Assembly (NCBI GenBank): GCA_963816145.1
Contig: CAWFJP010000014.1
Coordinates: 96,001 to 160,000, forward strand
Direction: 5' to 3'
From: an uncultured delta proteobacterium
GTDB lineage: Bacteria > Desulfobacterota > Binatia > UBA9968
DNA: 64,000 bases
This document shows, in pieces, positions 317-53,327 of the stretch. Numbering within the stretch: position 1 is the stretch's first letter; each line of letters opens with the position of its first letter. A model generated the notes under the pieces. That model did no database searches. It saw only the letters and a list, made by a program, of their open reading frames with translations, and had not been told where the DNA came from. Both the position numbers and the translations under genes were made by a program.

Positions 317-398
317 TCACCACGAAGAGCACGAAGGACACGAAGGTTTCGGACAAATAAATTTCCCAACTTCGTGTTCTTCGTGACCTTCGCGGTGA
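317..398. repeat. CACGAAG 9-bp-period palindromic element, copy 1
   Basis: tcac-cacgaag-ag-cacgaag-ga-cacgaag-gt-ttcgga-caaataaatt-tcccaa-cttcgtg-tt-cttcgtg-ac-cttcgcg-gtga. Confidence 0.9.
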
Positions 399-432
399 AA
401 AAATCTTTCACAATGAAGACAGGAGATTTACC

Positions 433-1548
433 ATGAGCACCCCCTATGAAGTCGCCGATATGATGATCGGCGTGCGCAACATGATCGAAGCGGCCGATCT
501 GCGGCGCGGCGACCAAGTGTTGCTGCTCGCCGACACGCGCAGCGACAAGATTACATTGGAAGCGTTAACCGCTGGTTTGCGCTTTTTCGGCGCCGAGCCG
601 ATGACGCTGGTGACCGAGCCAATCGCCCGCTACGGCGACGTGCCCAAGGCGGTAATGGACGCCATGCACGCCTCCGATGTGGCGATCTGGGTTTGGCCGG
701 TGTTTATTACCTTCACGCCGACCCATCGTGGCTTGGGACGCAAGCGCGAGGAGAGCGGCAGCCAGCTGCATGAAGCGCGCATGAAGCCGTATCATATTTA
801 TTTCGAGGGCAACGCCGGCTTGCTGGCGCGCGACTACGCCAAGTTCCCGAACAAAGTCTTATGGAAGCTCGCCGAAAAAGTCCGCGAAGTGGTGGCGCCC
901 GGCAAAGTTGTCCATATCGTCGACGATCTTGGCACCGATCTAACCGCGACTTACGACGGCAATCGGTTATACGGCATGCAGTTCCGCGCCGGCGATCCGC
1001 CGGGGCGCTGTCATTTCCCCTGGGGGCGCTGCGGCGTCTTCAACGGCGAGGGCAATTCCAACGGCGAAGTTTATCTGAGCTGTGTTCAAGGCGTCGCCGG
1101 GCGGCTTGCCGAACCTATGCGTTGGAAGGTGAAGGACAACATTATCACCGACGTCGACGGCGGCGGCGAAGTCGGCGAGGAGTGCAAACGCTTATTTCAA
1201 GAAGTGCCGGAATCCAATCGTTTGATCGAGATCATGTTCGGTTATCATCCCAAAGCGTCACCGGCCCATGGCATCGCCGATCCGATGCATTGGGAACTCA
1301 TCAGCAAGATGCCCTGGGCTGGCTTAGGCACGCCGCGCAAACATCCGAAATTCCGCCACATGGACGGGTCCGTGTTCGACGCTCGGCTTTACATCGACGA
1401 CCGGTTGGTGGTCGATAAGCATGGCATGCTCGACCGTTCGCTGTTGCATCATCCCGAGGTCCTCGAAGTAGCAGCGGAGTTCGGCGACCCGTATCAAGTG
1501 CTTGCGCCGGTGTCCCACGAGGCGCATGGTTCGAACACGGCGTGGTAG
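433..1548 (+). CDS. Peptidase M29 / NicX (2,5-dihydroxypyridine dioxygenase)-like fold metalloprotein
   Basis: 371 aa, AGGAG RBS; GTDLT motif, IEIMFGYHP segment and C-terminal HMD followed by LYIDDRLVVDKHG match the layout of the M29/NicX superfamily. Confidence 0.6.
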   Translation: MSTPYEVADMMIGVRNMIEAADLRRGDQVLLLADTRSDKITLEALTAGLRFFGAEPMTLVTEPIARYGDVPKAVMDAMHASDVAIWVWPVFITFTPTHRGLGRKREESGSQLHEARMKPYHIYFEGNAGLLARDYAKFPNKVLWKLAEKVREVVAPGKVVHIVDDLGTDLTATYDGNRLYGMQFRAGDPPGRCHFPWGRCGVFNGEGNSNGEVYLSCVQGVAGRLAEPMRWKVKDNIITDVDGGGEVGEECKRLFQEVPESNRLIEIMFGYHPKASPAHGIADPMHWELISKMPWAGLGTPRKHPKFRHMDGSVFDARLYIDDRLVVDKHGMLDRSLLHHPEVLEVAAEFGDPYQVLAPVSHEAHGSNTAW

Positions 1549-1561
1549 CACGAGGAATTCA

Positions 1562-1636
1562 TTCACCACGAAGGCACGAAGGACACGAAGGCCGGAGAAG
1601 AGATCATTCACCGAACCCCTAGTGCCTTCGTGGAGA
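1562..1636. repeat. CACGAAG palindromic element, copy 2 (right arm degenerate)
   Basis: ttcaccacgaaggcacgaaggacacgaag...ccgaac...agtgccttcgtggaga. Confidence 0.8.
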
Positions 1637-1709
1637 GAGTGCCCTCGGCCTTCGCCGTAGCCGTCCCATCGTCGCGGCCAATTCACAAATCGCAGCGCAT
1701 TTCTTTGTT

Positions 1710-1786
1710 TGTCATACCGGCGTAGGCCGGTATCCACGCATGAACGCCGCCGTCACTTCTGGATTCCCGCTTGCGCCGAAATGGCG
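1710..1786. repeat. REP-like doublet (GTCAT..CCGG..CCGG..TCCA / TGGATTC..ATG type)
   Basis: tgtcataccggcgtaggccggtatcca ... tggattcccgcttgcgccgaaatggcg: two imperfect palindromes in inverted orientation. Confidence 0.65.
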
Positions 1787-1800
1787 GAGGAGGGAGATTT

Positions 1801-1912: not shown

Positions 1913-2980
1913 TCACAGCCCCGGCCGGTAGAACTTCATCGCGTTGCCGCCAAGCACCGCTTCTTTATCCTCTTGAGTGAGATCGTCGCGGGCGAGCAGC
2001 TCGTCGATCTCGTGACGGCACTTGGCGGCGTCGAAGACTTCGTGGGGGAAGTCGCTGCCGAAAAGGAATGATTGGCGCCCGCCTTTGGCCACCGCCGTGT
2101 TCAAACCGTCATCGTCACAGTCGAAGCCGACAAAGATGCGTCCTTCGCGCAATTGTGTCTTGAAGTAGTCGCTGGCTCTTTCACCGGGCGCCGGACCGCC
2201 GAGGCGATTGCCATGGATGTCCAGTTGCACATGGCCGTCATGATAAGAGCGGTCGAGCCGGTCCATCATGAACGGCACCCAAGTGGCGCCGCCTTCGAGA
2301 AAACCGACGCGCAGTTTGGGAAAGCGATCGAAAACTCCATGGCCGATCATCGCCGAGGCTTGGATCATCAAGCTGAACGGATGGCCTAGGGCATGCACGG
2401 GATAGTAGGTCGTGAACGCATCCATGCCCATATGGTGCAACGCGCCGACATGGACGGCGAGACAGCAGCCTAACTTTTCCGCTTCTTCATAGAGCGGCCA
2501 GTAGATCTTATTGCCGAAGTGGCCTTGGATCGCCTCGCCGTTGGAAGGCAGCATACCGCCCAACATGCCGAGCTCTTTGACCGCGCGGCGCAATTCGACT
2601 ATGGCGGCGTCGACATCTTGAAACGGAATCAGCGCGACGCCTTTGAGGCGCGGGTTTTTGGTCAAAAACTTTTCTTGGAGCCAGGTGTTGTAGGCTCGGC
2701 AGGCGATCACCGCCCAATCCGGGGCCATGATTCGGCCGACGGCGAGACCGGCGGTGGGGTAAAGGACGGTCCAGCTGATTCCGGTTTTTTCGAGAAACTC
2801 AGTCCAAGCCTCGGCATCGGGATTCCCGGTGGCGCGGCGATTCTGTTTCAAATAGCGAAAGTGCAGATGATCGAACTCGGGAAAGAGTTTCGCCATCTGA
2901 TTGCCCTTGGGCATGTACTGGGCGATCTCGTCGCCGCAGATATGGTCGTTGATATGGCCGTCGGCATCGATAATTTGCAT
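1913..2980 (-). CDS. Amidohydrolase_2 family protein (ACMSD/LigW/LigJ-like)
   Basis: IIDADGH N-terminal motif, LAVH, FLEGG, FGSDFPH; start moved to ATG 2980 behind GAGGAG RBS. Confidence 0.9.
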   Translation of the reverse strand: MQIIDADGHINDHICGDEIAQYMPKGNQMAKLFPEFDHLHFRYLKQNRRATGNPDAEAWTEFLEKTGISWTVLYPTAGLAVGRIMAPDWAVIACRAYNTWLQEKFLTKNPRLKGVALIPFQDVDAAIVELRRAVKELGMLGGMLPSNGEAIQGHFGNKIYWPLYEEAEKLGCCLAVHVGALHHMGMDAFTTYYPVHALGHPFSLMIQASAMIGHGVFDRFPKLRVGFLEGGATWVPFMMDRLDRSYHDGHVQLDIHGNRLGGPAPGERASDYFKTQLREGRIFVGFDCDDDGLNTAVAKGGRQSFLFGSDFPHEVFDAAKCRHEIDELLARDDLTQEDKEAVLGGNAMKFYRPGL

Positions 2981-3094
2981 TGAGGCAGCTCCTCGGGAAA
3001 TCTTGGTCAAAGTGAAATCTATGCCGTTTGCCCATTACTTTGCAATCTTTTCCCAGCTTCTGCTATGGTCGTGCGATTGAAGGGAAATCCGATC

Positions 3095-9386: not shown

Positions 9387-10337
9387 CTAGCCCCTCGCTC
9401 CCTCGTTCCACAATTCATCCATGTAATCGCGTAGCGCTTCTTTGAGCGGATATTTCGGGGTGTAGCCCAGTTCCGCTTGGCTCACGCTGATATCCATCGG
9501 GATGCTGCGGCTCTTGTCGGCCGCGCTGCTGCCGCTGACTTTGACGTCGAGTTTGGGCGCCACTTCGCGCACCACTTGGGCCAGTTGCTCGGCCCCATGG
9601 ACCGCGCCGGTGCCGGCGTTGTAGATGCGTTGCCTGGGATTTTGCGCTTGGCAGGCGAGCAAGAGCGCCTGGCCGACGTCTTTGCCGTAGACATATTCGT
9701 TGGGGCCGTAGGTCTTGGCGTCGATGGTAATCGGATCGCCCTTGATCATCGCCAACGCCAGATCGCGCATGACCATGCCGACGGTGGAGCCGCCGACATA
9801 GAAGCCGCGGCCGAAAACGCCGCCGGGACGGATGATGATGGTGTCGAGGTTGTACATGCTGGCGTAGGCGTGGAGCAAATGCTCGGAGCAAACTTTGGTC
9901 GTCGCGTACAGATTATGACCGCCGATGGGATGAAGTTCTTTGACGACGTTGTCGGTAATCTTGCCGCGTTCATAGACCCCGAAGGTGCTGACGTAGACTA
10001 CCCGGCGCAGTTTTCGTAGCCGCGCCGCTTCGAGAATATTGATCGTGCCGAGAATATTATTAGTCGCGCCGGTGTAGGAGTTTTCCTGAACCCGGCCGCC
10101 GATCAAGCCGGCGGTGTGCACCATGGTGTCGACGTTGAATTTTTCCAATGCGGTGAGCAGCGCCGGTAAGTCGAGCATGTTGGCGGCCACCACATCGGCT
10201 TTGTCTTTGCCGACGACCTTCTGAACGTAATCGCGATTGGGCGATAAATCGAAAAGCACGACTTTGTGGCCGGCGTCGACCATTTGCCGCGCTGCGTGGG
10301 CGCCGATCAGTCCGGCGCCGGTGATGAGAATGTTCAT
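9387..10337 (-). CDS. NAD-dependent epimerase/dehydratase (extended SDR)
   Basis: ITGAGLIG, HTAG, STFGVY, YATTK, YNAGTG. Confidence 0.9.
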   Translation of the reverse strand: MNILITGAGLIGAHAARQMVDAGHKVVLFDLSPNRDYVQKVVGKDKADVVAANMLDLPALLTALEKFNVDTMVHTAGLIGGRVQENSYTGATNNILGTINILEAARLRKLRRVVYVSTFGVYERGKITDNVVKELHPIGGHNLYATTKVCSEHLLHAYASMYNLDTIIIRPGGVFGRGFYVGGSTVGMVMRDLALAMIKGDPITIDAKTYGPNEYVYGKDVGQALLLACQAQNPRQRIYNAGTGAVHGAEQLAQVVREVAPKLDVKVSGSSAADKSRSIPMDISVSQAELGYTPKYPLKEALRDYMDELWNEGARG

Positions 10338-10426: not shown

Positions 10427-10523
10427 TTCACCACGCAGATCGTAAAACGTTGGGATAACTAGGAAGGGTCGGATTGATGTCCGCCCCTACGAAATCTTTG
10501 TGCTCTTCGTGTCCTTCGTGGTG
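10427..10523. repeat. CACGAAG element with degraded left arm and an internal GTAG-type REP (10466-10490)
   Basis: ttcaccacgcag...gggtcggattgatgtccgcccctac...ctttgtg-ct-cttcgtg-tc-cttcgtg-gtg. Confidence 0.7.
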
Positions 10524-10557: not shown

Positions 10558-11528
10558 TTATTTGATGCCCAACTCCTGGTTAATTTCCTTCTGTAGACTG
10601 AAGTCGAAAATCTTCGCCGCCGGCACCGGCTCTTTGAGCTTCAGCACTTCGGCGTCGGCGCGGAGAAATTCTTCCACTTCCTTGTCGGTGGGTATGCCAT
10701 TCGTTGTAAACGCCGGACGCGCCAGGCGATAGGATTCGAGCGCCACGGCGAGGTCGACGTTGAGAAATTTGGCCAAGACTTCGGCCGTGCCGCGTTCGTT
10801 TTCGAACAAGTAGCGGTGCGCACGGGAGCGGGCGCGCAGAATGCGTTTCACCAGGTCACGCTTCTCGCGAATGAGCTTGTCAGAAAAGGCCAGGCCGTTT
10901 TGTAGATTCGCCAGGTCTTCCAGAGTACTGCCGTGGATGCGCAGCTTGAACTTATCGCGCGCAACGATGACCGTCGGCGGCGATAGCGCGACTAACTGAA
11001 CCACACCGCTCAAGAGGCTCTGGAGTTGGGCTGGAACATCGCCGCCGATCACCACGGTGATGTCCTTGTCCGGGTCGAGCCCGGCTTTCTGCAGCAGGCG
11101 CAGAGCAGCCAGATGTTGGGAGCCGCCGAAGGTGGTGGTGCCGAAGGTTTTGCCTTTGAGCTCGGCCAGCGATTTGATTTCCGGCTTGGTCACCAGCCAA
11201 AATAGGTTTTTCTTGAGACTCTGTGACAAGACTTTGGCCGGCAGGTCGCTGCGCTCGGCGGCGCGGATCAGCGTGCCGACGTTATTGATCGCATGGGCGT
11301 CGCCGCTGAGCAGCGCGGTGACGCCGATGTTGCCGCGCACCTGGACGACATCGGCGAGCAGCCCCTCTTGGCGAAAAAAGCCGCGCTCCTGGGCGATGTA
11401 AAGATCGACCGAAGCGATGCTGCGGCTGGGGTAGGTGATGACGATGCGTTCGAGGGTCGATTGCGCGTTGGCCGTCGCGCCGCAAGAAGCCAGGCCAACC
11501 AGCCGAGGACAAAGAGAGTAGGTTTCAT
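10558..11528 (-). CDS. NMT1/SsuA-like substrate-binding protein (frameshift in signal peptide near 11480)
   Basis: ATG 11528 MKPTLFVLGWLAWLL; the frame of ORF 10558-11340 reads upstream ANAQSTLERIVITYPSRSIASVDLYIAQERGFFRQEGL; ELKGKTFG, GLDPDKDI, FDFSLQ. Confidence 0.82.
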
Positions 11529-12073: not shown

Positions 12074-12083
12074 TTGAGATGTA

Positions 12084-12145
12084 GTTTCGATTTACGGGTT
12101 TCACGTTCCGGGTTAACCCGAAATCCAAGACTCGAAACTCGAAAC
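12084..12145. repeat. 7-bp-period inverted repeat (GTTTCGA / TCGAAAC)
   Basis: gtttcga tttacgg gtttcac gttccgg gttaac ccgaaat ccaagac tcgaaac tcgaaac between convergent genes. Confidence 0.7.
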
Positions 12146-12183: not shown

Positions 12184-13005
12184 TCAGGGGGCTCGGGGAA
12201 TGTCTTTTTGGCCGTCGGCGAGCCGTTTGGCCGAGGTGAGAAATCCGGTATGCGCGACCATGCGGTGTTGCGGTCGAGCGCTCATGCCCTTGAAATGCCA
12301 GAAGCGCATCAAGCTTTCGCTGGTTTCGATGCAGGCGAAACGTTTATCTTCGCGCAGGGTATCGACCAGGCTCTTCACTTGCAGTACCGTCGGCAAATAG
12401 CAAAGCAAAATGCCGCCGGGCCGCAGCGCCCGCCAGGCGCGCTCGATAACATGCCAGGGCTCGGGCAGGTCCAGTATGACGCGATCGATGTCGCTTTCAT
12501 TCAAATCGGTGGCGACGTTGCCGATCTTGATCGTCCAGTTGGGCGACGGACCGAAGTAGCGCGCGACGTTTTGCTGCGCCATCTCGGAAAAGTCCTCACG
12601 CAACTCGTAGGAAATTAGTTGCCCATCGCGGCCGATGGCGCGCAGGAGCGCCATGCTCAAAGCACCGGCACCGACACCGGCCTCGACGACCCGCGCGCCG
12701 GGAAAGAGGTCGGCCCAGATCAAGATCGGCCCGAGGTCTTTCGGATAGATGACCTGCGCGGTGCGCGGCAGGTTGGGAATCAGCTGCGGCAAACTCGGAC
12801 GAAAGACCAGAAACGGCTCATTTAACGACGAGCGTACGACGATGCCTTCGTCGTGACCGATGATGTCCTCGACGGCGATCTTGCCGCCGCGGATGGCGAT
12901 GGGGCGCCGCTGATCGAGGCGCGAGAGATATTCGCGATCTTTGCGGTCGAGCAAGATGACCGGCTCGTCGGCGGCCAATGGGCCTCTGCGATAGTTGCTG
13001 TCCAT
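12184..13005 (-). CDS. trmI: tRNA (adenine58-N1)-methyltransferase, TrmI/GCD14 family
   Basis: AQVIYPKD, VVEAGVGAGALS, YELREDF, ILDLPEPW, RPQHRMVAHTGFL. Confidence 0.92.
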   Translation of the reverse strand: MDSNYRRGPLAADEPVILLDRKDREYLSRLDQRRPIAIRGGKIAVEDIIGHDEGIVVRSSLNEPFLVFRPSLPQLIPNLPRTAQVIYPKDLGPILIWADLFPGARVVEAGVGAGALSMALLRAIGRDGQLISYELREDFSEMAQQNVARYFGPSPNWTIKIGNVATDLNESDIDRVILDLPEPWHVIERAWRALRPGGILLCYLPTVLQVKSLVDTLREDKRFACIETSESLMRFWHFKGMSARPQHRMVAHTGFLTSAKRLADGQKDIPRAP

Positions 13006-13049: not shown

Positions 13050-13131
13050 TTCACCACGAAGGCACGAAGGACACGAAGGGGTCAGATAAAATAATTCCGA
13101 ACTTCGTGATCTTCGTGTCCTTCGTGGTGAA
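13050..13131. repeat. CACGAAG palindromic element
   Basis: ttcac-cacgaag-g-cacgaag-ga-cacgaag-gggtcaga-taaaataat-tccgaa-cttcgtg-at-cttcgtg-tc-cttcgtg-gtgaa. Confidence 0.92.
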
Positions 13132-15962: not shown

Positions 15963-16796
15963 ATGGAATCATCTTCGCACGGCGCCTTGAATCAGCAGGG
16001 ACTAAGCCCCATTCGCGCGGTCTTCGATCTCGATGCCTATTGTACTCGGGTCAACTACACGGGGTCCCGCGAATTGTCAGCGGTCACGTTAAAAGGACTT
16101 GCATTTCGCGCATGTGCATAACGTGCCGTTCGAAAATCTCGACATTCATTTGGGTAAGGCGCTGTCATTAAATCCCGCCGAGCTATTCGCAAAGATCGTC
16201 ACCAGGAAGCGCGGCGGCTACTGCTACGAGGTCAACAGTTTCTTTGCGATGATCTTGCAGGCTTTTGGTTTTCAGGTGCAATGCCTATTGGCCCGCGTTC
16301 TCTATGGTTTCTCCAACTTACGCCCGCGCAGCCATCAACTTCTTTTGGTCACCGTAGACAAATGAGTCATGGATCGCCGACGTCGGTTTCGGCAGTTGCT
16401 GCCTGCGCGAGCCGATGCGTCTGACGCCAGGTGTGGTGAGCGAGCAAGGCCCCGACAGTTTCCGACTCAGATCCGAGACCGCCCACACCTACATTTTAGA
16501 GGCGATGCTGGCGGGCCGCTGGCAAGACCTTTACGAGTTTACTTTGGAACCGTTCGACCTCGTCGACTTACGAGCCATTCAACTATTGGAACTCAACCTC
16601 GCCCGAAGTGCGCTGGACAAAGCAGAAGGTTTGCAGCTTGCCGACGCCAGAGGGACGCATCGTAGCGGTCGATTGGGAGTTCAAGATACACAGCGCCGAT
16701 TTAACGCAAACGGTTCGGGCAATGTCGGACGAAGAGTATCGGCGAATGTTGAGTCAGTATTTTCGGTTGGAGATATCGGGAGAATTTGTCAAATGA
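15963..16796 (+). pseudogene. Arylamine N-acetyltransferase, three frameshifts (about 16100, 16362, 16568)
   Basis: FDLDAY..RVNY, VPFENLDI, RGGYCYE (Cys), RSHQLL (His), WIADVGFG (Asp) spread over successive frames; GGAGG RBS. Confidence 0.85.
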
Positions 16797-16848
16797 GGAA
16801 TAGACTGAAGCAGCCGAAATATAATCGGCCGCCACGTTAGGAGGTATT

Positions 16849-31801: not shown

Positions 31802-31893
31802 GTATTCCGTTGCGAACCCTTCGATATAACTCAGGGCATGCTTTGCGCCCTTTGCGGGAGATATTTCCGAAATGCACTTGCAGCTTTGCTGCG

Positions 31894-40702: not shown

Positions 40703-40738
40703 GTTCCAGCGGTTCCAAAGGTTCCAATAGTTCCATTC
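40703..40738. repeat. 9-bp tandem repeat GTTCCAnnn x4
   Basis: gttccagcg gttccaaag gttccaata gttccattc. Confidence 0.82.
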
Positions 40739-41913: not shown

Positions 41914-41931
41914 CGGTCGAATAATGGCTCT

Positions 41932-42000
41932 TTGTCATTTCGAACGAAGTGAGAAATCTGCCTACCGCGGAGATTTCTCGGCTCCGCCTCGAAATGACAA
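41932..42000. repeat. REP-like inverted doublet (TGTCATTTCGA..GAGAAATCT / AGATTTCTC..TCGAAATGACA)
   Basis: ttgtcatttcgaacgaagtgagaaatct-gcctaccgcgg-agatttctcggctccgcctcgaaatgacaa. Confidence 0.85.
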
Positions 42001-42027
42001 CGTGTGAAGATTGGAATCACCACGAAA

Positions 42028-45245: not shown

Positions 45246-46328
45246 ATGGCGCGCAAGCACTGGGCGTTCGTTTCCACCGGGGTACTGATGGCGGTAGCTA
45301 CCTGCCTTGCAGTGGCCAGCGCTGCTTCGATCGAACCAATCTTCGGCGAAATCGCCAAACTTTCCGGCGAGGCTCGGCAAAAACGGTTAGAAGAGGGCGC
45401 CCGCAAAGAGGGCGCCTTTATTTACTATTCGATTTCCAATGCCGATTTGATTGGCGCCTACGTCAAAGGGTTCACCGCTCGCTATCCATTTATCCGCGGT
45501 GAATTTTATCGCGGCAGCGGCAACCAATTGGTCGTGCGCACGATGATGGAGCATAAGTCGGGACGGCTGGCCGCCGACGTCATTTCGGTGGGAACTGAAA
45601 ATGTCATGGCCCTCAAACGCTCGGGGATTTGGACGCCTTACCGCTCGCCGGAGGCGCAGTTCTACCCGCGCGAGCAATACGATAAGGACGGCTATTTCCA
45701 TTCCGATAGTCTCGGCCTGGCGACTATGGTGTACAACACCCAGCTGGTCAAAAAGGGCGAAGCGCCCAAGGGCTACAACGATCTGCTCGATCCCAAGTGG
45801 AAAAACAGCATGACCATCGACCTGGAGCCCGAGCGCGCCATGTTGGCGTGGTTGTCGGCGTGGGGCGAAGCGCGCACGCGCGACTTCGTGCAAAAACTGC
45901 TTGGCAATGGCGCCAGCGTGCGTCGCGGCCATACCCTGCAGGCGCAGCTGCTTTGCGCCGGTGAGTTCAAGGTCGCCGTGGAACTCTATCCCGACGCGGT
46001 CCTGCGGATGCGCCAAAAGGGTTGCCCGGCGGAAATTGTTTTTCCCAATCCCACTCCAGCGCTCGCCGGCGGCAACTACGGCGTCAACATCAATGCGCCG
46101 CACCCCCATGCGGCGGCGCTGTTCGTCGATTTTGTCCTGTCGGCGGAAGGGGCGAAGATCCTAGCCGGCACCGGGCGCATTCCCACGCGCAAGGGCGCCC
46201 GTTCGATCTACGATGAGCTCAACAATTTGGAAGAAAAAGGCGTAACGCTGCATGTCGTCACCGCCGAGCAGACCGACCACGTATCCAAGGCGATGGAAAA
46301 GATTATGAAAGAGATGCTGGTGCGCTAA
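45246..46328 (+). CDS. Extracellular solute-binding protein (AfuA-like)
   Basis: Signal peptide, GARKEG, YNTQLV..PKGYNDLLDPKWK, APHPHAAALFVDFVLS.EG; paralog of 34292-35359. Confidence 0.87.
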   Translation: MARKHWAFVSTGVLMAVATCLAVASAASIEPIFGEIAKLSGEARQKRLEEGARKEGAFIYYSISNADLIGAYVKGFTARYPFIRGEFYRGSGNQLVVRTMMEHKSGRLAADVISVGTENVMALKRSGIWTPYRSPEAQFYPREQYDKDGYFHSDSLGLATMVYNTQLVKKGEAPKGYNDLLDPKWKNSMTIDLEPERAMLAWLSAWGEARTRDFVQKLLGNGASVRRGHTLQAQLLCAGEFKVAVELYPDAVLRMRQKGCPAEIVFPNPTPALAGGNYGVNINAPHPHAAALFVDFVLSAEGAKILAGTGRIPTRKGARSIYDELNNLEEKGVTLHVVTAEQTDHVSKAMEKIMKEMLVR

Positions 46329-46426
46329 TGCTTGTTAAGAGTTATGGTCCTACGCAGTTCAGCTCCGCTGGTTGTTGCAAATCTTTTCTGAATCATAACA
46401 AATAGAATTTGACGTGCCGGTCATAA

Positions 46427-46517
46427 CCCCCCCTTGAGAAAGGGGGGGCAGGGAGGATTTATCGAGTGCGGAATCTGCAGAATAAATCCCCCTGGATCCC
46501 CCTTAACCAAAGGGGGA
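46427..46517. repeat. REP-like doublet (CCCCCCTT..AAGGGGGG..GGATTT / AAATCCC..CCCCCTT..AAGGGGG)
   Basis: ccccccttgagaaagggggggcagggaggattta ... taaatccccctggatcccccttaaccaaaggggga. Confidence 0.8.
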
Positions 46518-46557
46518 AATCAGTAAAGCCCGATGCACACCAGAGGAGGTTTATTCG

Positions 46558-47721
46558 ATGTCCCGCCAGTACCGTTATTTTTCCGCCGATAGCCACTACG
46601 AATCGCTGCCGGAATCATGGACGCACCGGGTGCCGGTCAAGTATCGCGACCGCGCGCCGCGTCGCATTAAGCTTGCCGATGGCCGCGATGCGATCGTCGA
46701 TGAGGGCCAGCCGCTGGAATACCGCGGCACCAATTTATTTGCCGGTAAGGGACCGGAAAACTTCAATCCCACCCGGCTCGACTTCGACAACTCGGTTGGC
46801 GCCGGCTCGCCGCAGCAGCGCATAAAGGAGCAGGATGCCGACGGCATCGACGGTGAATTGCTGTTCGCCACCGAAGCGCGCAATACCAAGATCAAGGACC
46901 GCGACGCCTTCCTCGCCATCATCCGCGCGTTCAACGATTATTTCATCGAGGAATACTGCGCCGTCGACCCGGACCGCTTGATCGGCGTCGCGGTGATGCC
47001 GGACATGGGCGCCGATGAAAACGTCGCCGAGATGAAACGCTGCAAAGCAAAGGGCTTCAAAGCGGTACGCTTGCACACATTCCCAAGCGGTAAGAATTTT
47101 CCGACGCCGGAGGACGATCAGTTTTACGCGGCGGCGATCGATCTCGATATGCCGGTAACGATTCACACGTCGTTTCCTCGCCGTACTGATGAGCGCGACG
47201 TTTACTTGATGAAGTATCCCAAAGATCCCCAGGGTGAAGACCGCCCGTTCGATTTTCTCCAGCGCTTGGCGCGGCAGGGGATCTATCACTGCGGCGCGGT
47301 GGAGGCGACGCAATTGATTTTCACCGGGGTGTTCGACCGTTTCCCCAGGCTGCAAATTTTCTGGGCCGAGAATAACATCGGCTGGATCCCCTACTTCTAC
47401 CAGCAGATGGATCAGACCTATAAGGTCAATTGCCACTGGGCGGAGAAACTTTTGGGGTTGCCCAAGTTAAAGAAGCTCCCGAGCGAATACCTGCGCGAGC
47501 ACGCCCACTGGGGCGTCTTCGACGATCCCATCGGCATCCAGCTGCGCCATATGGTCGGTGTCGACAAGGTGATGTGGTCCACCGACTTTCCGCATATCGT
47601 GACGGTATGGCCCGATTCGCTGAAGCTGGTCGAAGAACAATTCGCCGGTGTGCCGGAAAATGAAAAGCACGCGATGCTCGCCGGCAACGCGGTGAAGTTT
47701 TTTCATCTCGATGCGGCATAA
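46558..47721 (+). CDS. Amidohydrolase_2 family protein
   Basis: SADSH, VTIH, WAENN, MWSTDFPH, GNAVKFF; GGAGG RBS. Confidence 0.92.
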   Translation: MSRQYRYFSADSHYESLPESWTHRVPVKYRDRAPRRIKLADGRDAIVDEGQPLEYRGTNLFAGKGPENFNPTRLDFDNSVGAGSPQQRIKEQDADGIDGELLFATEARNTKIKDRDAFLAIIRAFNDYFIEEYCAVDPDRLIGVAVMPDMGADENVAEMKRCKAKGFKAVRLHTFPSGKNFPTPEDDQFYAAAIDLDMPVTIHTSFPRRTDERDVYLMKYPKDPQGEDRPFDFLQRLARQGIYHCGAVEATQLIFTGVFDRFPRLQIFWAENNIGWIPYFYQQMDQTYKVNCHWAEKLLGLPKLKKLPSEYLREHAHWGVFDDPIGIQLRHMVGVDKVMWSTDFPHIVTVWPDSLKLVEEQFAGVPENEKHAMLAGNAVKFFHLDAA

Positions 47722-47732
47722 CCGGAGAACAC

Positions 47733-47771
47733 GTTCCAGTCGTTTCAAACGTTCAAGCCGTTCAAATCGTT
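47733..47771. repeat. 9-bp tandem repeat GTTC(C/A)Annn x4
   Basis: gttccagtc gtttcaaac gttcaagcc gttcaaatc. Confidence 0.78.
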
Positions 47772-47867
47772 GACGGAAGAAGATGCGGATTCGGAGGGGA
47801 GGGCCGCAAACCTTGTCCAGAGCGCATGCCACGGTACTAAAGCTTTGCGAACAACGCAGAAATGCGG

Positions 47868-47950
47868 TTCACCACGAAGGACACGACGAGCACGAAGTTC
47901 GGAATCTTAATCGTCCGATACCTTCGTGTCCTTCGTGATCTTCGTGGTGA
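47868..47950. repeat. CACGAAG palindromic element
   Basis: ttcac-cacgaag-ga-cacgacg-ag-cacgaag-ttcgga-atcttaatcg-tccgatac-cttcgtg-tc-cttcgtg-at-cttcgtg-gtga. Confidence 0.92.
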
Positions 47951-47985
47951 GATCCATCCTTCCCGGCATCGCACGCTGTTCAAGT

Positions 47986-48987
47986 TCACACGCCCAGCAG
48001 CTTGCGCAGTATCCGGTCGTCGATTAAGTCCTCGACCTTCAGATTTCCTACCTTGGGGTTTTGTTGTTTCATCAGGCGCTGGACGTTGCGCAGGCCCTCC
48101 AACGACGGATAGGGTTTGGCTTCGACACCGGTGATGAGATCCTGGTAGCCTGCCTCGGCGCTGTTGGCGTCGGGGATGCGCAGGCGCGTCGTCATCGTTT
48201 TAATAACCGCTGCCTTGTTGGCCGGCGCCAGGCTGAACTGGATACCTTCAAGAAGGCTTTTCAAAAAATTCTCGATCACGTTTGACTGCTTCTGCAGAAA
48301 TGTTCGTGAAACGACAATCCCTTGGCCGGGAAACGGAATGTTGGCTTTGCCGAACTCGGCGATGACTTTGAATCCCTTTTGCTTCAATCGATGGGTGTAA
48401 ACGCCGTCGAGGGTAGCGACGTCGACATTGCCGGCTTCGAGAGCTTGAGTGTTGTTGGTCTGGTCGCCAACGATCATGAGCGAAATCTGATCCCGCGTGG
48501 CTTCCAAGCCCAAGTGTTCCAGGCCGAGCAGAGCGCCCATCCATAAACTGCCGCCAATGCCGCCGGTGCCTAGGCGTTTGCCGCGCAAGTCTTCGACCTT
48601 GTTGATTCCTGGGCGGGCGATTAAATCATAAGTCAACCGATTTGACATCATGGCAAGTATTTTCAACTCAGCGCCGTTGGCGGCTGCGCCGAGCGCGGTA
48701 TTGGAGCCGCCGTAGACGATCTGCAGCTCGCCGGCGAGTAAGGCGGCCACTGCTGGCTGGGAGAGGCGCGTCAGAACTAAGATTACGTCGAGTCCGTTTT
48801 TGGCAAAAAAGCCGCGCTCCTGGGCGATCCACAGCGGCGAAACGCGTGAGTTGAGCGTCGACAGACCGACGATGAGTTTAGTTTGGGCGGAGGATTGGAC
48901 CGGCAGTAAGAAGCAGAAACAAATGAGGATAGTTACTGCAGTACGGCGCAAATAGTTTTTTGCGCAAGTTGCAAAGTTCTGCTCCAT
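47986..48987 (-). CDS. NMT1/SsuA-like substrate-binding protein
   Basis: SSAQTKL, WIAQERGFFAKNGL, DLRGKRLG, PYPSLEG, LIDDRIL; start uncertain. Confidence 0.85.
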   Translation of the reverse strand: MEQNFATCAKNYLRRTAVTILICFCFLLPVQSSAQTKLIVGLSTLNSRVSPLWIAQERGFFAKNGLDVILVLTRLSQPAVAALLAGELQIVYGGSNTALGAAANGAELKILAMMSNRLTYDLIARPGINKVEDLRGKRLGTGGIGGSLWMGALLGLEHLGLEATRDQISLMIVGDQTNNTQALEAGNVDVATLDGVYTHRLKQKGFKVIAEFGKANIPFPGQGIVVSRTFLQKQSNVIENFLKSLLEGIQFSLAPANKAAVIKTMTTRLRIPDANSAEAGYQDLITGVEAKPYPSLEGLRNVQRLMKQQNPKVGNLKVEDLIDDRILRKLLGV

Positions 48988-48995
48988 TAGTTTCG

Positions 48996-49040
48996 CCCTC
49001 ACTCTCACCCTCGCCATCTCCCATCGGAATGGGCGAGGGG
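48996..49040. repeat. REP-like element (CCCTCAC..CTCCC..GGGCGAGGG type)
   Basis: ccctcactctcaccctcgccatctcccatcggaatgggcgagggg. Confidence 0.65.
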
Positions 49041-49073
49041 GATAAGAGAAAGTTTATTTTGATCTTAGCCGAA

Positions 49074-50246
49074 TTATTTTCCGTGCCAGTTGATCCATAG
49101 GCCGAGCAACGCCACGCCGGCGGTGGCGAGATACATGATTCGAAAACTCTGGTCGACCAAATCAAGTAACGCGCCGAGGGTCAAGGAGCCGATGCCGATG
49201 CCCAGGTCGTAGAAGAACTGAAACTGCGCCAGCGATTGGCCGCGCCGTTGGCCGTCGCTGCGATCCACCGCTTGAGTCATGAGCGCCGGTTGGGCGGCGC
49301 CGGTGCCGAAGCCGCAGACGATGGCAGCGGCCATCAAGCCGTTCGAGGTTGTCGCGAACGCCAGAAGGACGATGCCGGCCAGATTCAATATCAGTCCGGG
49401 AATGATCGCGGCGCGGCGGCTGATTTTATCCGAAATCGGTCCGGCGATGGGCCGGCTGAGAAGGATGCAGGCGGCGTAGACGCCGAACCAGATGCCGGGA
49501 TTGGTGACGCCGATTTTCAAAGCTTGAATCGGTAAAAACGTCAGAATGCCGCCGTGGCCGAAGGACAGAAACGCCACGCCGATGGCCGGGTCGAGGGATT
49601 CTTTGACCATGATGTTGTCGATCCAGCGCTTGGCTTTGTCGGGTTCAGTGAAGGAACGCTTCGGTTCGGTGACGGGAACGGCGAAGATAAAACTCAGAAT
49701 CAGCAATGCGCTGGCGCCGAGAAACACGCCGGAATAATCGAAGCGATGGAACAGCGCGAAGCCCAACACCGGACCCAGCGCTGAAGCCAGGCTGCTGGCC
49801 ATAGCGGCGTAACCCATCAAGTCGCCGCGCCGCGCTTTCGGTACGATGTCGGCGCTGATGGTCGACACCGCGGTGGTGCAGCCCGACCAGCCTAGGCCAT
49901 GGAGCACGCGAAACGGCAACATGAGTAAAATCGACGGCGCCCATAAGTAGCCCAACTTGCCGGCGGTGAAAAACGCGATGCCATAGAGTAGAAATGGCTT
50001 GCGGCCGATGCGATCGATGAGCAAACCGACGGGAATGCGCGTCGCCGTGGTGGTGATCGTGAATACCGCCATCACCGCACCGATGACGGTGGACGAGGCG
50101 CCGAAGGTGATCAAATAGAGCGGCAGCAGCGGCCGGGTGACATGATGAGCGAGAAAGATGCCGAAGCGGCTCAACCAAGTGAGTACGAAATCCTTGAGCC
50201 AAGGGCGGTCTGATGATGCTTGCTCGGATGCTTCACTCTTGGCCAT
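49074..50246 (-). CDS. MFS transporter
   Basis: GLLIDRIGRK and GPISDKISRR motif-A repeats; about 12 TM segments. Confidence 0.92.
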   Translation of the reverse strand: MAKSEASEQASSDRPWLKDFVLTWLSRFGIFLAHHVTRPLLPLYLITFGASSTVIGAVMAVFTITTTATRIPVGLLIDRIGRKPFLLYGIAFFTAGKLGYLWAPSILLMLPFRVLHGLGWSGCTTAVSTISADIVPKARRGDLMGYAAMASSLASALGPVLGFALFHRFDYSGVFLGASALLILSFIFAVPVTEPKRSFTEPDKAKRWIDNIMVKESLDPAIGVAFLSFGHGGILTFLPIQALKIGVTNPGIWFGVYAACILLSRPIAGPISDKISRRAAIIPGLILNLAGIVLLAFATTSNGLMAAAIVCGFGTGAAQPALMTQAVDRSDGQRRGQSLAQFQFFYDLGIGIGSLTLGALLDLVDQSFRIMYLATAGVALLGLWINWHGK

Positions 50247-50319
50247 GGGAAGCTTCGATCATTGCGGTAGGAGTGTGACAAAGTCAATTGCGTGAAATAC
50301 AAGATATCGGAGAGATTCC

Positions 50320-50398
50320 TTCACCACGAAGGCACGAAGAGCACGAAGTTCGGAATCTAATTTTCCGAAACCTTCGTGTCCTTCGTGCCTTCGTGGTG
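50320..50398. repeat. CACGAAG palindromic element
   Basis: ttcac-cacgaag-g-cacgaag-ag-cacgaag-ttcgga-atctaattt-tccgaaac-cttcgtg-tc-cttcgtg-c-cttcgtg-gtg. Confidence 0.92.
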
Positions 50399-50510
50399 GA
50401 TCCTCTGTTTCGTCCACCACAGCTGCCTACTGGTAGTACAAATTTCTCGTTGCAAACTTTCTGGAGTCCTGACAGAGTGAGGCCGTTTTGCCGACGGGAG
50501 GAGTGAATTT

Positions 50511-52259
50511 ATGACGATGCCAAACAAGACCGTGCCGGTTTCCACCGGCGCCGAGGCGTTTCTCGCGCAGATGCGCGCGCTCGGTTCGGTGCGTTACATG
50601 TTCGCCAACACCGGCACAGATCATGGTCCGTTGATCGAGGCGATGGCGCGGACGGCGGGCGAAGATCCGCGCGAGATTCGGCCCATCGTGGTGCCGCACG
50701 AGCAGGCGGCGGTATCGATGGCCCATGGTTATTACAACGTCACCCAACAGCCGCAGATGGTGCTGGTGCACACGCTGCCGGGCACGGCCAATGCTCTCGG
50801 CGGCGTCATCAACGCGGCGTCGGCCAACGTGCCGCTGTTTCTTTGCGCTGGGCGCACGCCGATCACCGAGGGCGAGCTGCGCGGCGGCAAGAGCCAGAAC
50901 ATTCACTGGCGTCAGGAATCGCGCGATCAAGGCGCTGTCGTCCGCGAATTCGTCAAGTGGGATTATGAAATTCGCACCAATCAAAACCTCGCCGCGGTAG
51001 TCGCGCGCGCCTACAAGATCGCCATGAGCGAGCCGCGCGGCCCCGTCTATATGACGCTGCCGCGCGAGTGGTTGGCCGAAGCGATGGAATCGACGCAGGT
51101 GTTTGCGCCGGACGCGCTGGCGCCGGCGAGTAAGACCCAAGCCGATCAAGCGTCGTTGGAGAAAACCGCCGACTGGCTGATCGCCTCCGATAGTCCGTTG
51201 ATCGTCACCAAGTATCTCGGCCGCAACCCCGAAGCGGTGCAGTCGTTGATCGAGTTGAGCGAGCTGTTGGCGATCCCCGTCGTGCAACAAATGACCTACG
51301 TCAATTTCCCCACTGACCATCCACTGCACTTGGGCACCCAGGTGACGAAATATGTGCGCAACGCGGACATGTTGTTTTTCATCGACACCGACGTGCCGTG
51401 GGAGCCGCCCAACCGCAATGTGTTGCGCGACGGTGTGAAGATCGTTCACCTCGAGCGCGATCCGCTGTTCACCGGCATTCCCGGTTGGGGGTTTCCCGCT
51501 GATTTGCCGGTGAGCGGTTGTTCCGAGGTCTCGCTGCCGGTGCTGAACGCAATCATCCGAAACAAGCTCAATGGCGGCGCGGTGACGCAAGCGAAATTGG
51601 ACGAGCGGCGCAAACAAACCGAAGCGGAACATCAAGTCATGATCCGCGAGATGGATGCCAGCGTCGAAGCGGTGAAAAATCAGTCGCCGATTCATCCGTA
51701 TTGGTTGTCGAAGTGCATCGCCGATGCGATGGACGATAAGACGATCATCGCCAATGAAACGATTACTTCGAAGCTCGCCGAGGTGATTCACTTGAATCGG
51801 CCGGGCTCGATGTTCAACACGCCGCTTGCCGGTCATCTCGGCTGGGGACTAGGCGCGGCGATCGGCATGAAGTTGGGAAATCCGGACGCCACCGTCATCG
51901 CCGCCGAAGGCGACGGTTCCTACATGTTCTGTGCGCCGACGGCCTGTCATTTCACCGCGCAGAAATATCAGATCCCATTTCTGACGGTGATCTATAACAA
52001 CCAGGTGTGGAACGCGAGTTTGAATGCAGCGCGCGGCCTCTATCCCGATGGCGTGGCAGCCAGGACGCGTAACTTTCCCGGCACCGATCTGACGCCGTCG
52101 CCCAACTTCGAGCTGACGGCGCAAGCCTGCGGCGCTTATGCGGCGCGAGTGGAAGACCCGGCGGCGTTGGCGGATGCGCTGGCGAAGGCGCTCAAAGTGG
52201 TGAAGGATGAAAAACGCCAGGCTCTGCTCAATGTAATCTGCAAAAATCCGCTGGCGTAA
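50511..52259 (+). CDS. Thiamine-diphosphate-dependent enzyme (acetolactate synthase/benzoylformate decarboxylase family)
   Basis: FANTGTD, PHEQAAVSMAHGY (catalytic Glu), GPVY, GDGS..NN ThDP motif. Confidence 0.9.
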   Translation: MTMPNKTVPVSTGAEAFLAQMRALGSVRYMFANTGTDHGPLIEAMARTAGEDPREIRPIVVPHEQAAVSMAHGYYNVTQQPQMVLVHTLPGTANALGGVINAASANVPLFLCAGRTPITEGELRGGKSQNIHWRQESRDQGAVVREFVKWDYEIRTNQNLAAVVARAYKIAMSEPRGPVYMTLPREWLAEAMESTQVFAPDALAPASKTQADQASLEKTADWLIASDSPLIVTKYLGRNPEAVQSLIELSELLAIPVVQQMTYVNFPTDHPLHLGTQVTKYVRNADMLFFIDTDVPWEPPNRNVLRDGVKIVHLERDPLFTGIPGWGFPADLPVSGCSEVSLPVLNAIIRNKLNGGAVTQAKLDERRKQTEAEHQVMIREMDASVEAVKNQSPIHPYWLSKCIADAMDDKTIIANETITSKLAEVIHLNRPGSMFNTPLAGHLGWGLGAAIGMKLGNPDATVIAAEGDGSYMFCAPTACHFTAQKYQIPFLTVIYNNQVWNASLNAARGLYPDGVAARTRNFPGTDLTPSPNFELTAQACGAYAARVEDPAALADALAKALKVVKDEKRQALLNVICKNPLA

Positions 52260-52270
52260 CTCCCACTTCA

Positions 52271-52428
52271 TCCTCCCCCGCTATGCGGGGGAGGAAAGAG
52301 GAGGGGGATCGGCCGCAAAGCATGCAAAAGACGCAAAGTGGAACGAAGTATTCTTTCCACCACGAAGGTCACGAAGGACATGAAGTTTAGAAAATTAACT
52401 ATCCGAACCCTTCGCGCTCTTTGTGGTA
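52271..52428. repeat. Cluster of three repeat types: CCTCCCCC..GGGGGAGG hairpin, CGCAAAG 9-bp units, CACGAAG element
   Basis: tcctcccccgctatgcgggggagga (52271); cgcaaag-ca-tgcaaaa-ga-cgcaaag (52314); ccac-cacgaag-gt-cacgaag-ga-catgaag-tttaga..tccgaacc-cttcgcg-ct-ctttgtg-gt (52357). Confidence 0.82.
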
Positions 52429-52532
52429 AATGATCTCTGTGAGCAGCGCAGCAATGGCTTGCTTGCGCGTGGTTTTGACCATCGGCCGCCGACACGGAAA
52501 CAAGCGGGGTATAGAGTTAGTCGAGGTGAACT

Positions 52533-53240
52533 GTGAAAACGATTCGTCAGCAAATACATGTCGACGGCAGCGCGATGAATTTATTTTCGGCGCAGCCTGA
52601 TTCCAATGGGGCCTTGCCGGCGGTGCTGGTGATACAGCATCAGTATGGGGTGGACAAGTTCATGGAGGAGATGACCGAGCGTTTCGCGCGCGACGGCTTT
52701 TTCGCAATTTGTCCGGATCTGTACCATCGCGATGGGCCGGACTGTAAGGACGACGGGCCGACGCGGCGCGGCCGGGCGCGCGACAGCAATATCATCAACG
52801 ATGTCAACGCGACGATGGCGCACCTGCGCGCGAACAAACTTGTCGACAGCAAACGGGTGGCGATTCTCGGCTTCTGCATGGGCGGACGGGTCGCCTATTT
52901 GATGGCGGCGGCGAGCAAGGATTTCAAAGCGGCGATCACCTGGTATGGCGGCAGTTGCTTCCGCCAGTGGGGCGACGGGCCGACGCCGTTCGAACGGACA
53001 GCGCAGATCTCCTGTCCGATCCAAGGCCATTTTGGCGCGACTGATCAAAATCCGACGCTGGAAGATATGGCCAAGATGGACGCCGAGTTGACGAAGTTTG
53101 GCAAGGAGCATGAGTTTTTCGTCTACCAAGACACCGGCCACTCGTTCATGGACCCGCATCATCCCGACCGTTACGTGGAAAAGTCGGACCGGGAGTCATG
53201 GGCGCGCGGCTTGGAGTTCTTGCGGAAGAATTTGGGATAG
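52533..53240 (+). CDS. Dienelactone hydrolase family protein
   Basis: PDLYHR, GFCMGG (Cys nucleophile), GATD, GHSF; GAGG RBS with GTG start. Confidence 0.92.
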   Translation: MKTIRQQIHVDGSAMNLFSAQPDSNGALPAVLVIQHQYGVDKFMEEMTERFARDGFFAICPDLYHRDGPDCKDDGPTRRGRARDSNIINDVNATMAHLRANKLVDSKRVAILGFCMGGRVAYLMAAASKDFKAAITWYGGSCFRQWGDGPTPFERTAQISCPIQGHFGATDQNPTLEDMAKMDAELTKFGKEHEFFVYQDTGHSFMDPHHPDRYVEKSDRESWARGLEFLRKNLG

Positions 53241-53245
53241 GGATC

Positions 53246-53327
53246 TCACCACGAAGATCACGAAGGACACGAAGGGTTCGGAAAAATATTAATCCGAACT
53301 TCGTGCTCTTCGTGTCCTTCGTGGTGA
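53246..53327. repeat. CACGAAG palindromic element
   Basis: tcac-cacgaag-at-cacgaag-ga-cacgaag-gg-ttcgga-aaaatattaa-tccgaa-cttcgtg-ct-cttcgtg-tc-cttcgtg-gtga. Confidence 0.93.

Follow-up and report, generated by a model that had tools for sequence, protein, structure and literature searches.

Introduction

In REPIN-RAYT systems (REP, repetitive extragenic palindromic sequence; REPIN, REP doublet forming a hairpin; RAYT, REP-associated tyrosine transposase), two inverted units about 20-30 nt apart form a hairpin of 80-100 nt, many gene-less copies lie between co-directional or convergent genes, and one small gene is flanked by inverted units, the short form being thought to use its product in trans (PMC3337134 and PMC3733652, in the sections available). 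The defining REP unit is a palindrome of 20-40 bp, one end of which bears an unpaired tag, GTAG or CGTC (PMC3733652, with the same limit), and REPINs are vertically inherited according to the abstract of a preprint. Here we describe the CACGAAG element, a hairpin repeat that is like the REPIN-RAYT pair in its doublet, its gene-less copies and its single flanked gene. It occurs in ten copies in a 64-kb stretch of an uncultured delta proteobacterium of the Binatia (positions 96,001 to 160,000 of contig CAWFJP010000014.1), and this whole stretch of 64,000 nt is called the window below. With moderate confidence, we read the ten hairpins as gene-less, MITE- or REPIN-like members (MITE, miniature inverted-repeat transposable element) of a horizontally spreading selfish family, the full form of which carries a gene for a GxxExxY protein, and which are mobilised in trans.

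The initial annotation of the window called the repeat REP-like. The term holds as an analogy, for the inverted doublet and the hairpin, but not for the tag and the partner gene: neither a GTAG nor a CGTC tag was seen at the termini of 88 elements or in the window, and no IS200/IS605-like RAYT gene is present among 65 open reading frames (ORFs) of the window. Moreover, the CACGAAG unit is an array of three 7-bp words and not one 20-40-bp palindrome, its partner gene encodes a PD-(D/E)XK nuclease and not an HUH tyrosine transposase, and its arms and near-identical genes cross phyla. The strings CACGAAG and CTTCGTG are absent from the text of the main REP survey, so far as that text was available (PMC3733652).

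MITEs derived from insertion sequences (ISs), which measure 70-300 bp, have terminal inverted repeats of about 15-30 bp and no ORF, and are flanked by a target-site duplication, offer a second comparison. Like them, the window elements are short (63-96 bp), have terminal inverted repeats (arms of 25-29 nt) and no coding capacity, and they have a longer relative with the same ends and a gene, together with a deletion intermediate (locus L043). Unlike them, they show no target-site duplication, the parent gene is no recognised transposase and the ends are internally periodic. Transposon ends such as those of Tn7 and Mu, and the subterminal repeats of CACTA-type elements, place several short transposase recognition words in each of two inverted ends. 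However, a DDE transposase and target duplications go with such elements, whereas the words here are only 7 bp long, follow one another every 8-9 bp, and no enzyme of that kind was seen.

The intervening sequences (IVSs) of 23S rRNA, of the Leptospira and Coxiella type, are selfish inserts with a stem of about 28 bp around one small ORF, and they spread horizontally and are co-transcribed with the host gene (PMC4990558, in the sections available). GxxExxY elements likewise lie co-directionally within operons, for example between fabD and fabG. Whereas IVSs lie in helix 9, 25 or 45 of a 23S rRNA gene and are excised by RNase III, the window copies lie between protein-coding genes, with no rRNA in the window, and the ORF family is GxxExxY rather than the S23p four-helix bundle. 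Arms of this type may also be linked to genes of four-helix-bundle '23S rRNA IVS proteins'. The repeat also differs from an intrinsic terminator, in which a U-tract directly follows a G+C-rich stem, in that its stem is followed by GTGAA(A) and no U-tract. The family works most like a REPIN-RAYT or MITE-IS pair, yet lacks what defines each of them, and the chance that it represents a mobile-element class of its own is substantial. Our literature search on GxxExxY, PDDEXK_3/PF13366/TIGR04256, the arm strings, IVS/S23p, MITE and REPIN-RAYT returned no description of the family; subscription journals and database family notes lay outside this search, so an earlier remark may exist.

Results

Periodic arms in other genomes and their link to a GxxExxY gene

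One scan of the genomes of 185,579 species (596 Gb) for three words separated by 1-2-nt gaps returned at least 125 stretches. All figures given below out of 125 loci are among the matches listed, which were selected by their arms. By our own arithmetic, 21 fixed bases are expected about once by chance in 596 Gb. The listed matches span more than 15 phylum-level groups according to their record titles: Pseudomonadota (alpha, beta and gamma), 'Deltaproteobacteria'/Thermodesulfobacteriota, SAR324, Binatia, Acidobacteriota, Planctomycetota, Verrucomicrobiota/Lentisphaerae/Kiritimatiellae, Chloroflexota, Nitrospirota, Gemmatimonadota, Cyanobacteria, Actinomycetota, Bacteroidota, Thermotogae, Methylomirabilota and Schekmanbacteria. 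Arms are also present in the cultured strains Herpetosiphon aurantiacus DSM 785 (Chloroflexota), Methylobacter tundripaludum, Desulfobacter vibrioformis and Thiohalophilus thiocyanatoxydans.

A left arm is followed by a right arm within 600 bp in 77/125 loci and within 70 bp in 48/125. Many of the remaining 48 have a degenerate partner arm and a few are tandem word arrays; one match, L011, looks like a chance match in coding DNA. The interiors range from 6 to several hundred bases and vary from lineage to lineage. Among the listed loci, the inner TTCGGA...TCCGAA stem of the window copies is found only under Candidatus Binatia or 'delta proteobacterium' titles (L061, L096, L102-L104 and L114).

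Tandem arrangements of several kinds were seen in these loci. L098:228-1556 (a Vicinamibacterales metagenome-assembled genome, MAG) contains some nine hairpin elements in head-to-tail order that recur about every 155 bp, as a tandem array of whole elements. One word is repeated five to nine times in tandem with no nearby partner arm at L036:2001-2079, L085:301-379, L125:62-108 and L075:1912-1950, and in L025 and L080. At L003:1377-1433, eight CACGGAG/CACGAAG words stand right after a complete element.

The initial annotation had mentioned similar repeats that flank GxxExxY genes and had advised listing the ORFs between arms, and the link to these genes proved to be real. Locus L063, from a Desulfobacteraceae MAG, reads TCAC-(CACGAAG)x3, an ORF of 123 aa and (CTTCGTG)x3-GTGA, with the start codon directly after the last left word. 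The ORF matches the NCBIfam model TIGR04256, 'GxxExxY protein' (E=7.3e-45, 152.1 bits, cut-off 35), and the Pfam family PF13366, PDDEXK_3 (E=1.7e-43, 148.1 bits, cut-off 22). By tblastn with the L063 protein, six of the 125 loci have the gene, each time right next to an arm, with the start codon 0-3 nt past the last core (the 7-bp word). Reading inward from single arms mostly entered neighbouring genes and revealed no second cargo family.

The protein databases retain traces of the same arrangement. At least 8000 protein clusters match the L063 protein at E<=1e-10, and the best 120 are 80-95% identical to it; named homologues with 85% identity come from Lacimicrobium (Gammaproteobacteria), Candidatus Desantisbacteria and Candidatus Bipolaricaulota. 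All six N-extended proteins among the best 120 read HEEHEG, TTKGTK or RRARRTRR just ahead of MEFDEL. Since these strings are the three reading frames of the left arm, it is the arm that is translated in the N-extended homologues. When 1.84 billion cluster representatives were searched with a profile, 33,494 members passed E<=0.001, and 14,252 of them passed E<=1e-10. Among the best 150 of the 50%-identity representatives, period-3 dipeptides occur in 20 of 70 N-extensions, as compared to 64 of 600 control windows, with examples spelling several words (TTKDTKSTK, TTEGTEDTE and HQAHQGHQ). As judged from these comparisons, both the ends and the gene spread horizontally, and the ends are physically linked to the gene.

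D67, E77, K79, Q91 and Y95 are invariant in 25 GxxExxY sequences (alignment A3). The D...ExK...QxxxY arrangement is one that we take to be RecB/Cas4-like, and the only other model matched is Cas4, weakly (E=0.005, residues 54-98). A sequence search of the PDB gave nothing with one protein, nor with the profile at E<=10, and tblastn against a phage collection gave no match at E<=1e-6. In a 2012 survey, PDDEXK_3 is listed with 'Unknown' function and 'multiple transfers' (PMC3424549, in the part available). Many of the best cluster representatives from the profile search (P0241-P0256 and others) are predicted proteins of 240-295 aa with two GxxExxY domains, which are either genuine tandem fusions or the result of reading through two neighbouring genes.

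A sample of genes chosen without regard to arms was obtained by tblastn of the protein against 72,556 plasmid records, which gave eight GxxExxY genes whose flanks were read. Four of the eight are bordered by periodic inverted arms of CACGAAG-like build. These are of TCAC-CACAGAG type in a Bacteroides finegoldii plasmid, of CACAGAG type with TAAC...GTTA caps in a Bernardetia plasmid (the word also seen in copy 3 of the window) and of CGCGAAG type in a Sphingomonas parapaucimobilis plasmid record, while a Gemmatirosa plasmid has complete CGCAGAG hairpins on both sides. In all six annotated plasmid records, the gene is co-directional with its annotated neighbours and stands between housekeeping genes, e.g. 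radA, ade and fabD|fabG. A blastn search with copy 10 of the window against the plasmids gave no match, although the low-complexity filter may have masked the copy.

Ten hairpins stand out in the window

Over both strands of the window, CACGAAG is matched exactly 48 times, whereas dinucleotide shuffles (n=100) averaged 9.96 matches (sd 3.43, maximum 21), none reaching 48. The matches group into left arms of two or three words at 8-9 bp spacing, each opposite a CTTCGTG right arm. We built a covariance model, R1, from 14 oriented copies (alignment A2; seven from the window and seven from related loci) and ran it unfiltered over the 64 kb. It found ten hairpin places on one or both strands, scoring 104.5 to 30.9 bits and all with E below about 1e-4. 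The next match, at 59550-59612 (E=0.1), is a different periodic hairpin.

These ten are exactly the copies that the initial annotation had listed, at the same places or a few bases away, and the covariance-model scan of the window recovers no others. Its consensus, TCAC-(CACGAAG+1-2 nt)x2-3 - TTCGGA - AT-rich - TCCGAA - (CTTCGTG+1-2 nt)x3 - GTGA, fits seven of the copies (alignments A1 and A2). All ten are indeed intergenic with respect to the 65 longest ORFs that do not overlap each other, and to the Pfam matches of these ORFs. The flanking genes are co-directional for five copies, convergent for three and divergent for one (50321-50398); for one more (53246-53327), the downstream neighbour is ambiguous. 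The orientation of the elements relative to transcription was considered as a signal and dropped, the 4:1 split of five co-directional cases being too few.

The six intact copies have a predicted RNA fold of -43.4 to -59.2 kcal/mol (z -6.0 to -13.7), and the four eroded copies, at 1562, 1801, 10427 and 52357, reach -23 to -34 kcal/mol (z -1.1 to -5.0). The absence of a consistent U-tract, noted in the first reading, was borne out by the flanks (TTTCAC...GTGAAA) and by a terminator scan of 46000-54500, in which none of the four copies there was flagged. Rfam gave no match at the gathering score over the window, none at E<=10 over 53150-53450, and no rRNA. The rest of the window consists of ordinary metabolic genes (Pfam, 65 ORFs), and no transposase domain or PD-(D/E)XK gene was found among these ORFs by Pfam.

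The words, and not their pairing, are conserved

To the conservation analysis, the window and the related loci contributed 94 distinct left/right pairs. The picture of near-invariant 7-bp cores, variable linkers and periodic small internal loops that had been drawn from the window alone is borne out. The linkers (1-2 nt) are Watson-Crick at 90/245 positions (37%), as compared to 33.6 +/- 3.7% with shuffled partners (1000 shuffles), and their mismatches in the 94 elements comprise 44 G.T, 38 A.C and 73 others; the left-arm linkers are purines and the right-arm linkers pyrimidines. The stem is a series of 7-bp helices set apart by small mismatched loops. In the 58 elements with equal word numbers, 45 of 1225 word positions deviate, and none of these 45 deviations is compensated on the other arm. 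The sole pairwise co-variation is in the cap, where A-T (62 elements) or G-C (15 elements) occupies the middle position of xAC/GTx. The termini of 88 elements read TT(C/A)AC, the cores and GT(G/T)AA, with no T run past the stem.

Words that are kept without compensated pairing fit iterated protein-recognition sites better than a structure-selected stem. The proposal of repeated protein-recognition sites rather than plain terminators is therefore upheld by the cores kept as sequence and the unpaired linkers, as well as by the lack of a U-tract and by copy 8, which lies between divergent genes.

This conservation bears on a reading in which the hairpin serves the host as an RNA element, its stem being an RNase III processing site, a stabiliser of 3' ends or a U-tract-independent terminator, with GxxExxY as an occasional passenger. 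The predicted stems are very stable, at least one gene 3' end adjoins 9/10 window copies and 31/34 classifiable locus copies, and REPs show a like 3'-end bias (PMC3733652, in part). RNase III cuts those IVSs of 23S rRNA that have a terminal stem of 28 bp and enclose an ORF (PMC4990558, in part), and GxxExxY is co-directional with its neighbours in the six annotated plasmid loci. However, neither linkers nor cores covary, and a purely structural role would not need the same 7-bp word across many phyla. G.T and A.C mismatches are equally common, so that neither strand is favoured, and between co-directional genes the oriented model points one way in one of five cases and the other way in four. 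Together with the lack of a U-tract, the divergent setting of copy 8 and the absence of a matching Rfam family, these observations make such an RNA element unlikely.

The gene-context figures for the loci come from crude ORF calling in 2-kb segments, in which 34 classifiable short hairpins comprised 20 between co-directional, 11 between convergent and 3 between divergent genes.

Iterated, evenly spaced and sequence-conserved words with unconstrained linkers could also be bound by a chromosomal host protein unrelated to GxxExxY, such as a nucleoid-associated or topology factor of the kind proposed for some clusters of REPs and BIMEs (bacterial interspersed mosaic elements). The specificity of such a factor would have to be conserved unchanged across more than 15 phylum-level groups, and the arms are physically linked to one horizontally moving gene family; we thus regard this as very improbable.

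Signs of insertion, deletion and nesting

The gene-carrying form can be compared at a filled and an empty site. In S. parapaucimobilis, fabD is followed by 7 nt, an element of about 440 bp and fabG, and in S. paeninsulae about 32 nt separate fabD from fabG; three more alphaproteobacterial records are equally short. The two Sphingomonas species are only 73% identical at fabD-fabG. A gene-less composite of about 265 bp is common to L008 and L048, which belong to different MAGs; the two are 88% identical, with sharp edges and unrelated flanks, and consist of an outer inverted repeat of about 20 nt, CGCAAAG words and a CACGAAG hairpin. The CGCAAAG word is also found within the CACGAAG element of L081.

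L043 joins about 67 codons of the gene straight to the right arm, at a CTCGTG microhomology that resembles the word, and is by its sequence a deletion intermediate between the long and short forms. The remnant reading of the inner stem, in which TTCGGA...TCCGAA would derive from the first and last codons of the gene, was dropped, as five gene starts (ATGGA(A/G)TTCGA...) were unconvincing.

In L017, CACAGAG, CACGAAG and CGCAGAT arms are arranged concentrically, in this order from the outside, around about 390 bp without a convincing ORF. L097 and L008 have foreign periodic arms within CACGAAG arms, and L015 combines a CACAGAG left arm with a CTTCGTG right arm. From these nested and mixed arms, the loops look like favoured insertion sites and the arms appear to recombine.

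Nesting of this kind can also be viewed from the opposite side, with the short hairpins as the older, primary form and GxxExxY as a homing-type nuclease gene that copies itself into empty hairpin centres; the window copies would then be uninvaded targets. The gene always sits exactly between the arms, starting 0-3 nt past the last core, other arm families are inserted in hairpin interiors (L017, L097 and L008), gene-carrying copies are few (6/125), and the nuclease is highly conserved and horizontally transferred. Against this, the empty fabD-fabG spacer of S. paeninsulae has no hairpin, so that arms and gene apparently arrived together (with the reservation that the species are 73% identical there), and L043 shows that gene loss by internal deletion occurs. 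Homing also leaves unexplained some ten gene-less hairpins at different intergenic sites within 64 kb, and on balance we doubt that it is the correct account.

Our preferred reading, that the short hairpins derive from a mobile gene-carrying form, agrees with the initial annotation, which had proposed a non-autonomous mobile family. Indirect support comes from the cross-phylum arms, the filled and empty gene-carrying site and the L008/L048 composite; that the copies in the window's own genome have moved is what we infer from these comparisons. The initial annotation had also advised examining the junctions for target-site duplications, and the 88 elements yielded none of 3 nt or more.

The individual window copies

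Copy 1 (317-398, + strand) is intact, with 3+3 cores (-45.0 kcal/mol, z -8.3; 102.9 bits), and lies 22 nt past the stop of ORF 2-295(+) and 35 nt ahead of the start of 433-1548(+). Copies 2 and 3 follow. Copy 2 (1563-1638, - strand) is eroded, with an intact left arm of 3 cores and a right arm of 1 exact core (-34.2 kcal/mol, z -5.0; 42.8 bits), and stands between the convergent genes 433-1548(+) and 1913-3010(-). Copy 3 (1802-1864, - strand) is the CACAGAG/CTCTGTG variant, with three exact CTCTGTG words in the right arm and an eroded left arm (-23.3 kcal/mol; 30.9 bits). Despite its CACAGAG arms, it has the inner TCCGAACC that is common to the local CACGAAG copies. Arms of the CACAGAG type also flank GxxExxY genes in L126 and L128 (Bacteroidota).

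Copy 4 (10428-10523, + strand), between 9387-10337(-) and 10558-11340(-), is eroded. Its left arm is cut to TCACCACGCAG, its interior measures about 55 nt and its right arm has 3 cores (33.4 bits); at z -1.1, a significant hairpin is no longer formed. Copy 5 (13051-13130, + strand), between 12184-13005(-) and 13179-14171(-), is intact, with 3+3 cores (-47.2 kcal/mol, z -9.8; 96.1 bits). Copy 6 (31721-31800, + strand), between 31435-31683(-) and 31894-33090(-), has 2+3 cores and a longer AT-rich loop (-43.4 kcal/mol, z -9.8; 69.1 bits).

Copy 7 (47869-47950, - strand) is intact, with 3+3 cores including one CACGACG (-45.2 kcal/mol, z -6.0; 100.9 bits), and lies between the convergent genes 46558-47721(+) and 47986-49017(-). 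The most stable copy is copy 8 (50321-50398, - strand), which is intact (-59.2 kcal/mol, z -13.7; 89.7 bits). It lies between the divergent genes 49074-50246(-) and 50511-52259(+), both supported by Pfam, and therefore has no gene 3' end adjoining. Copy 9 (52357-52428, - strand), between 50511-52259(+) and 52533-53240(+), is eroded, with 3 left cores (one of them CATGAAG) and 2 degenerate right cores (-23.8 kcal/mol, z -3.4; 71.2 bits). Copy 10 (53246-53327, + strand) is intact and the best R1 match (-49.4 kcal/mol, z -9.6; 104.5 bits), and it starts 6 nt past the stop of 52533-53240(+).

Sister families and other features of the window

Two further periodic hairpins in the window (both unstranded) are built from other words. 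At 59547-59614, (TGGAAC+3 nt)x4 is directly followed by (GTTCCA+3 nt)x4, with a period of 9 and almost no loop; this is the hairpin matched by R1 at E=0.1. A solo arm of the same TGGAAC/GTTCCA family, with GTTCCA x4 at period 9, lies at 40703-40735 (unstranded). The TGGAAC pattern had no match in the 134 loci examined. At 30195-30275, (GTTCAA-like+2-3 nt)x4 stands opposite (TTGAAC+2-3 nt)x4, with a period of 8-9. Short runs of CTTTGCG/CGCAAAG beside copies 6 and 9, at 31836-31862 and 52314-52340, look like solo arms of a further family.

Three intergenic inverted repeats fall outside the CACGAAG family: one of G/C runs at 46428-46516 (35-nt arms, 74% complementary), one at 41917-42015 (27-nt arms) and one with GTTTCG-like words at 12083-12139. 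Among the genes, the adjacent ORFs 16099-16365 and 16415-16840 match consecutive parts of Acetyltransf_2 (profile positions 9-96 and 115-178 of 240), and the pair looks like a split or frameshifted arylamine N-acetyltransferase gene. The window is rich in paralogues, with six Amidohydro_2 ORFs and seven ORFs for NMT1/THI5-like solute-binding proteins, and a family-B DNA polymerase gene adjoins a PAC2-family gene. Among named proteins, those nearest to this polymerase are 'Deltaproteobacteria bacterium' MAG proteins (82% and 75% identity), so that the host is probably a member of this uncultured lineage.

Discussion

In the reading that we favour, the ends of the family are inverted arrays of the 7-bp word CACGAAG every 8-9 bp, capped by TCAC...GTGA, and full-length members carry one small gene between these arms, encoding the 123-aa GxxExxY protein, a putative minimal RecB/Cas4-like PD-(D/E)XK nuclease. 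Loss of this gene brings the arms to within about 25 nt of each other, so that they have the look of an 80-nt hairpin. The iterated words may be binding or cutting sites, most plausibly for a GxxExxY nuclease that is encoded elsewhere in the genome and acts in trans. The copies might multiply by cut-and-repair or cut-and-paste, with a preference for intergenic DNA and the loops of resident hairpins, and would be tolerated mainly downstream of genes. Any effect on RNA, through a long stem in read-through transcripts and possibly as an RNase III substrate, would be a by-product and not the reason for conservation. We infer that the 7-bp word is recognised by the GxxExxY nuclease, which would mobilise the short form in trans. 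Homing and an RNA side-effect could each coexist with this reading.

Several observations weigh against it. The window itself has no GxxExxY homologue (tblastn, and Pfam on the 65 ORFs), in line with the earlier remark that the mobilising factor is not encoded here. Only six of the 125 arm loci carry the gene, and the other long interiors (100-500 bp) have no convincing ORF. Four of the eight plasmid genes have other flanks: period-9 ACAAATnnn words in direct orientation after a small GC hairpin on both sides in a Prevotella nigrescens plasmid (L131), direct repeats of about 45 nt in a Fusobacteria plasmid (L130), a non-periodic inverted repeat in a Treponema plasmid, and no obvious flanking repeat in a Persicobacter plasmid. 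The similarity of the proteins follows arm type imperfectly: identity to the L063 protein is 56% for the one from Bacteroides, where the arms are CACAGAG, and 54% and 48% for those of L086 and L003, where the arms are CACGAAG. To our knowledge, GxxExxY is no known transposase.

The missing target-site duplication belongs to the same group of observations, in that the classical signature of cut-and-paste is absent. Direct repeats of 3-5 nt, at offsets 0-7, beat shuffled partners in at most one element (maximum z 2.4, for 3 nt), and a 2-nt repeat signal at offset 0 is due to the self-complementary GC terminal variant. In a BLAST comparison of the window flanks with all loci, only the elements matched, which leaves no filled and empty comparison for the window copies. 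About 13 of 43 short hairpins in the loci lie inside some ORF of at least 120 aa found by the crude caller, although we think that most of these ORFs are spurious in GC-rich DNA. Copy 3, finally, combines CACAGAG arms with the local interior, a combination for which simple copying from a single master does not account; either its arm words were swapped at the site, or one small inner hairpin entered copies of both kinds.

A wider claim is possible but doubtful at present. On this view, CACGAAG and its sister families (CACAGAG, CGCGAAG, CGCAGAG, CGCAGAT, CACCAGG and perhaps TGGAAC and GTTCAA) may form an undescribed cross-phylum class of mobile elements, whose spread would be driven by a RecB/Cas4-like PD-(D/E)XK nuclease of about 120 aa without a transposase of any known class. 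The ends would be arrays of its 7-bp recognition word, and the preference of new copies for resident hairpin loops would give rise to the concentric nests. GxxExxY, with its 14,252 cluster representatives at E<=1e-10, would then rank among the commonest unrecognised mobile-element genes of bacteria.

The reading of the ten hairpins as members of a mobile family would explain a repeat that fills about one in 6-7 of the intergenic regions of the window. The repeat is probably also the source of many spurious 'HEGHE/TKDTK/LRVLRVFVV' peptides in gene predictions. If the reading is true, GxxExxY/PDDEXK_3, a very large family, gains a function and a DNA partner. The persistence of a 7-bp word through many phyla would be a sign of a small nuclease with sequence specificity that merits study, and the REPIN-RAYT and MITE-IS pairs would gain a counterpart based on a nuclease.

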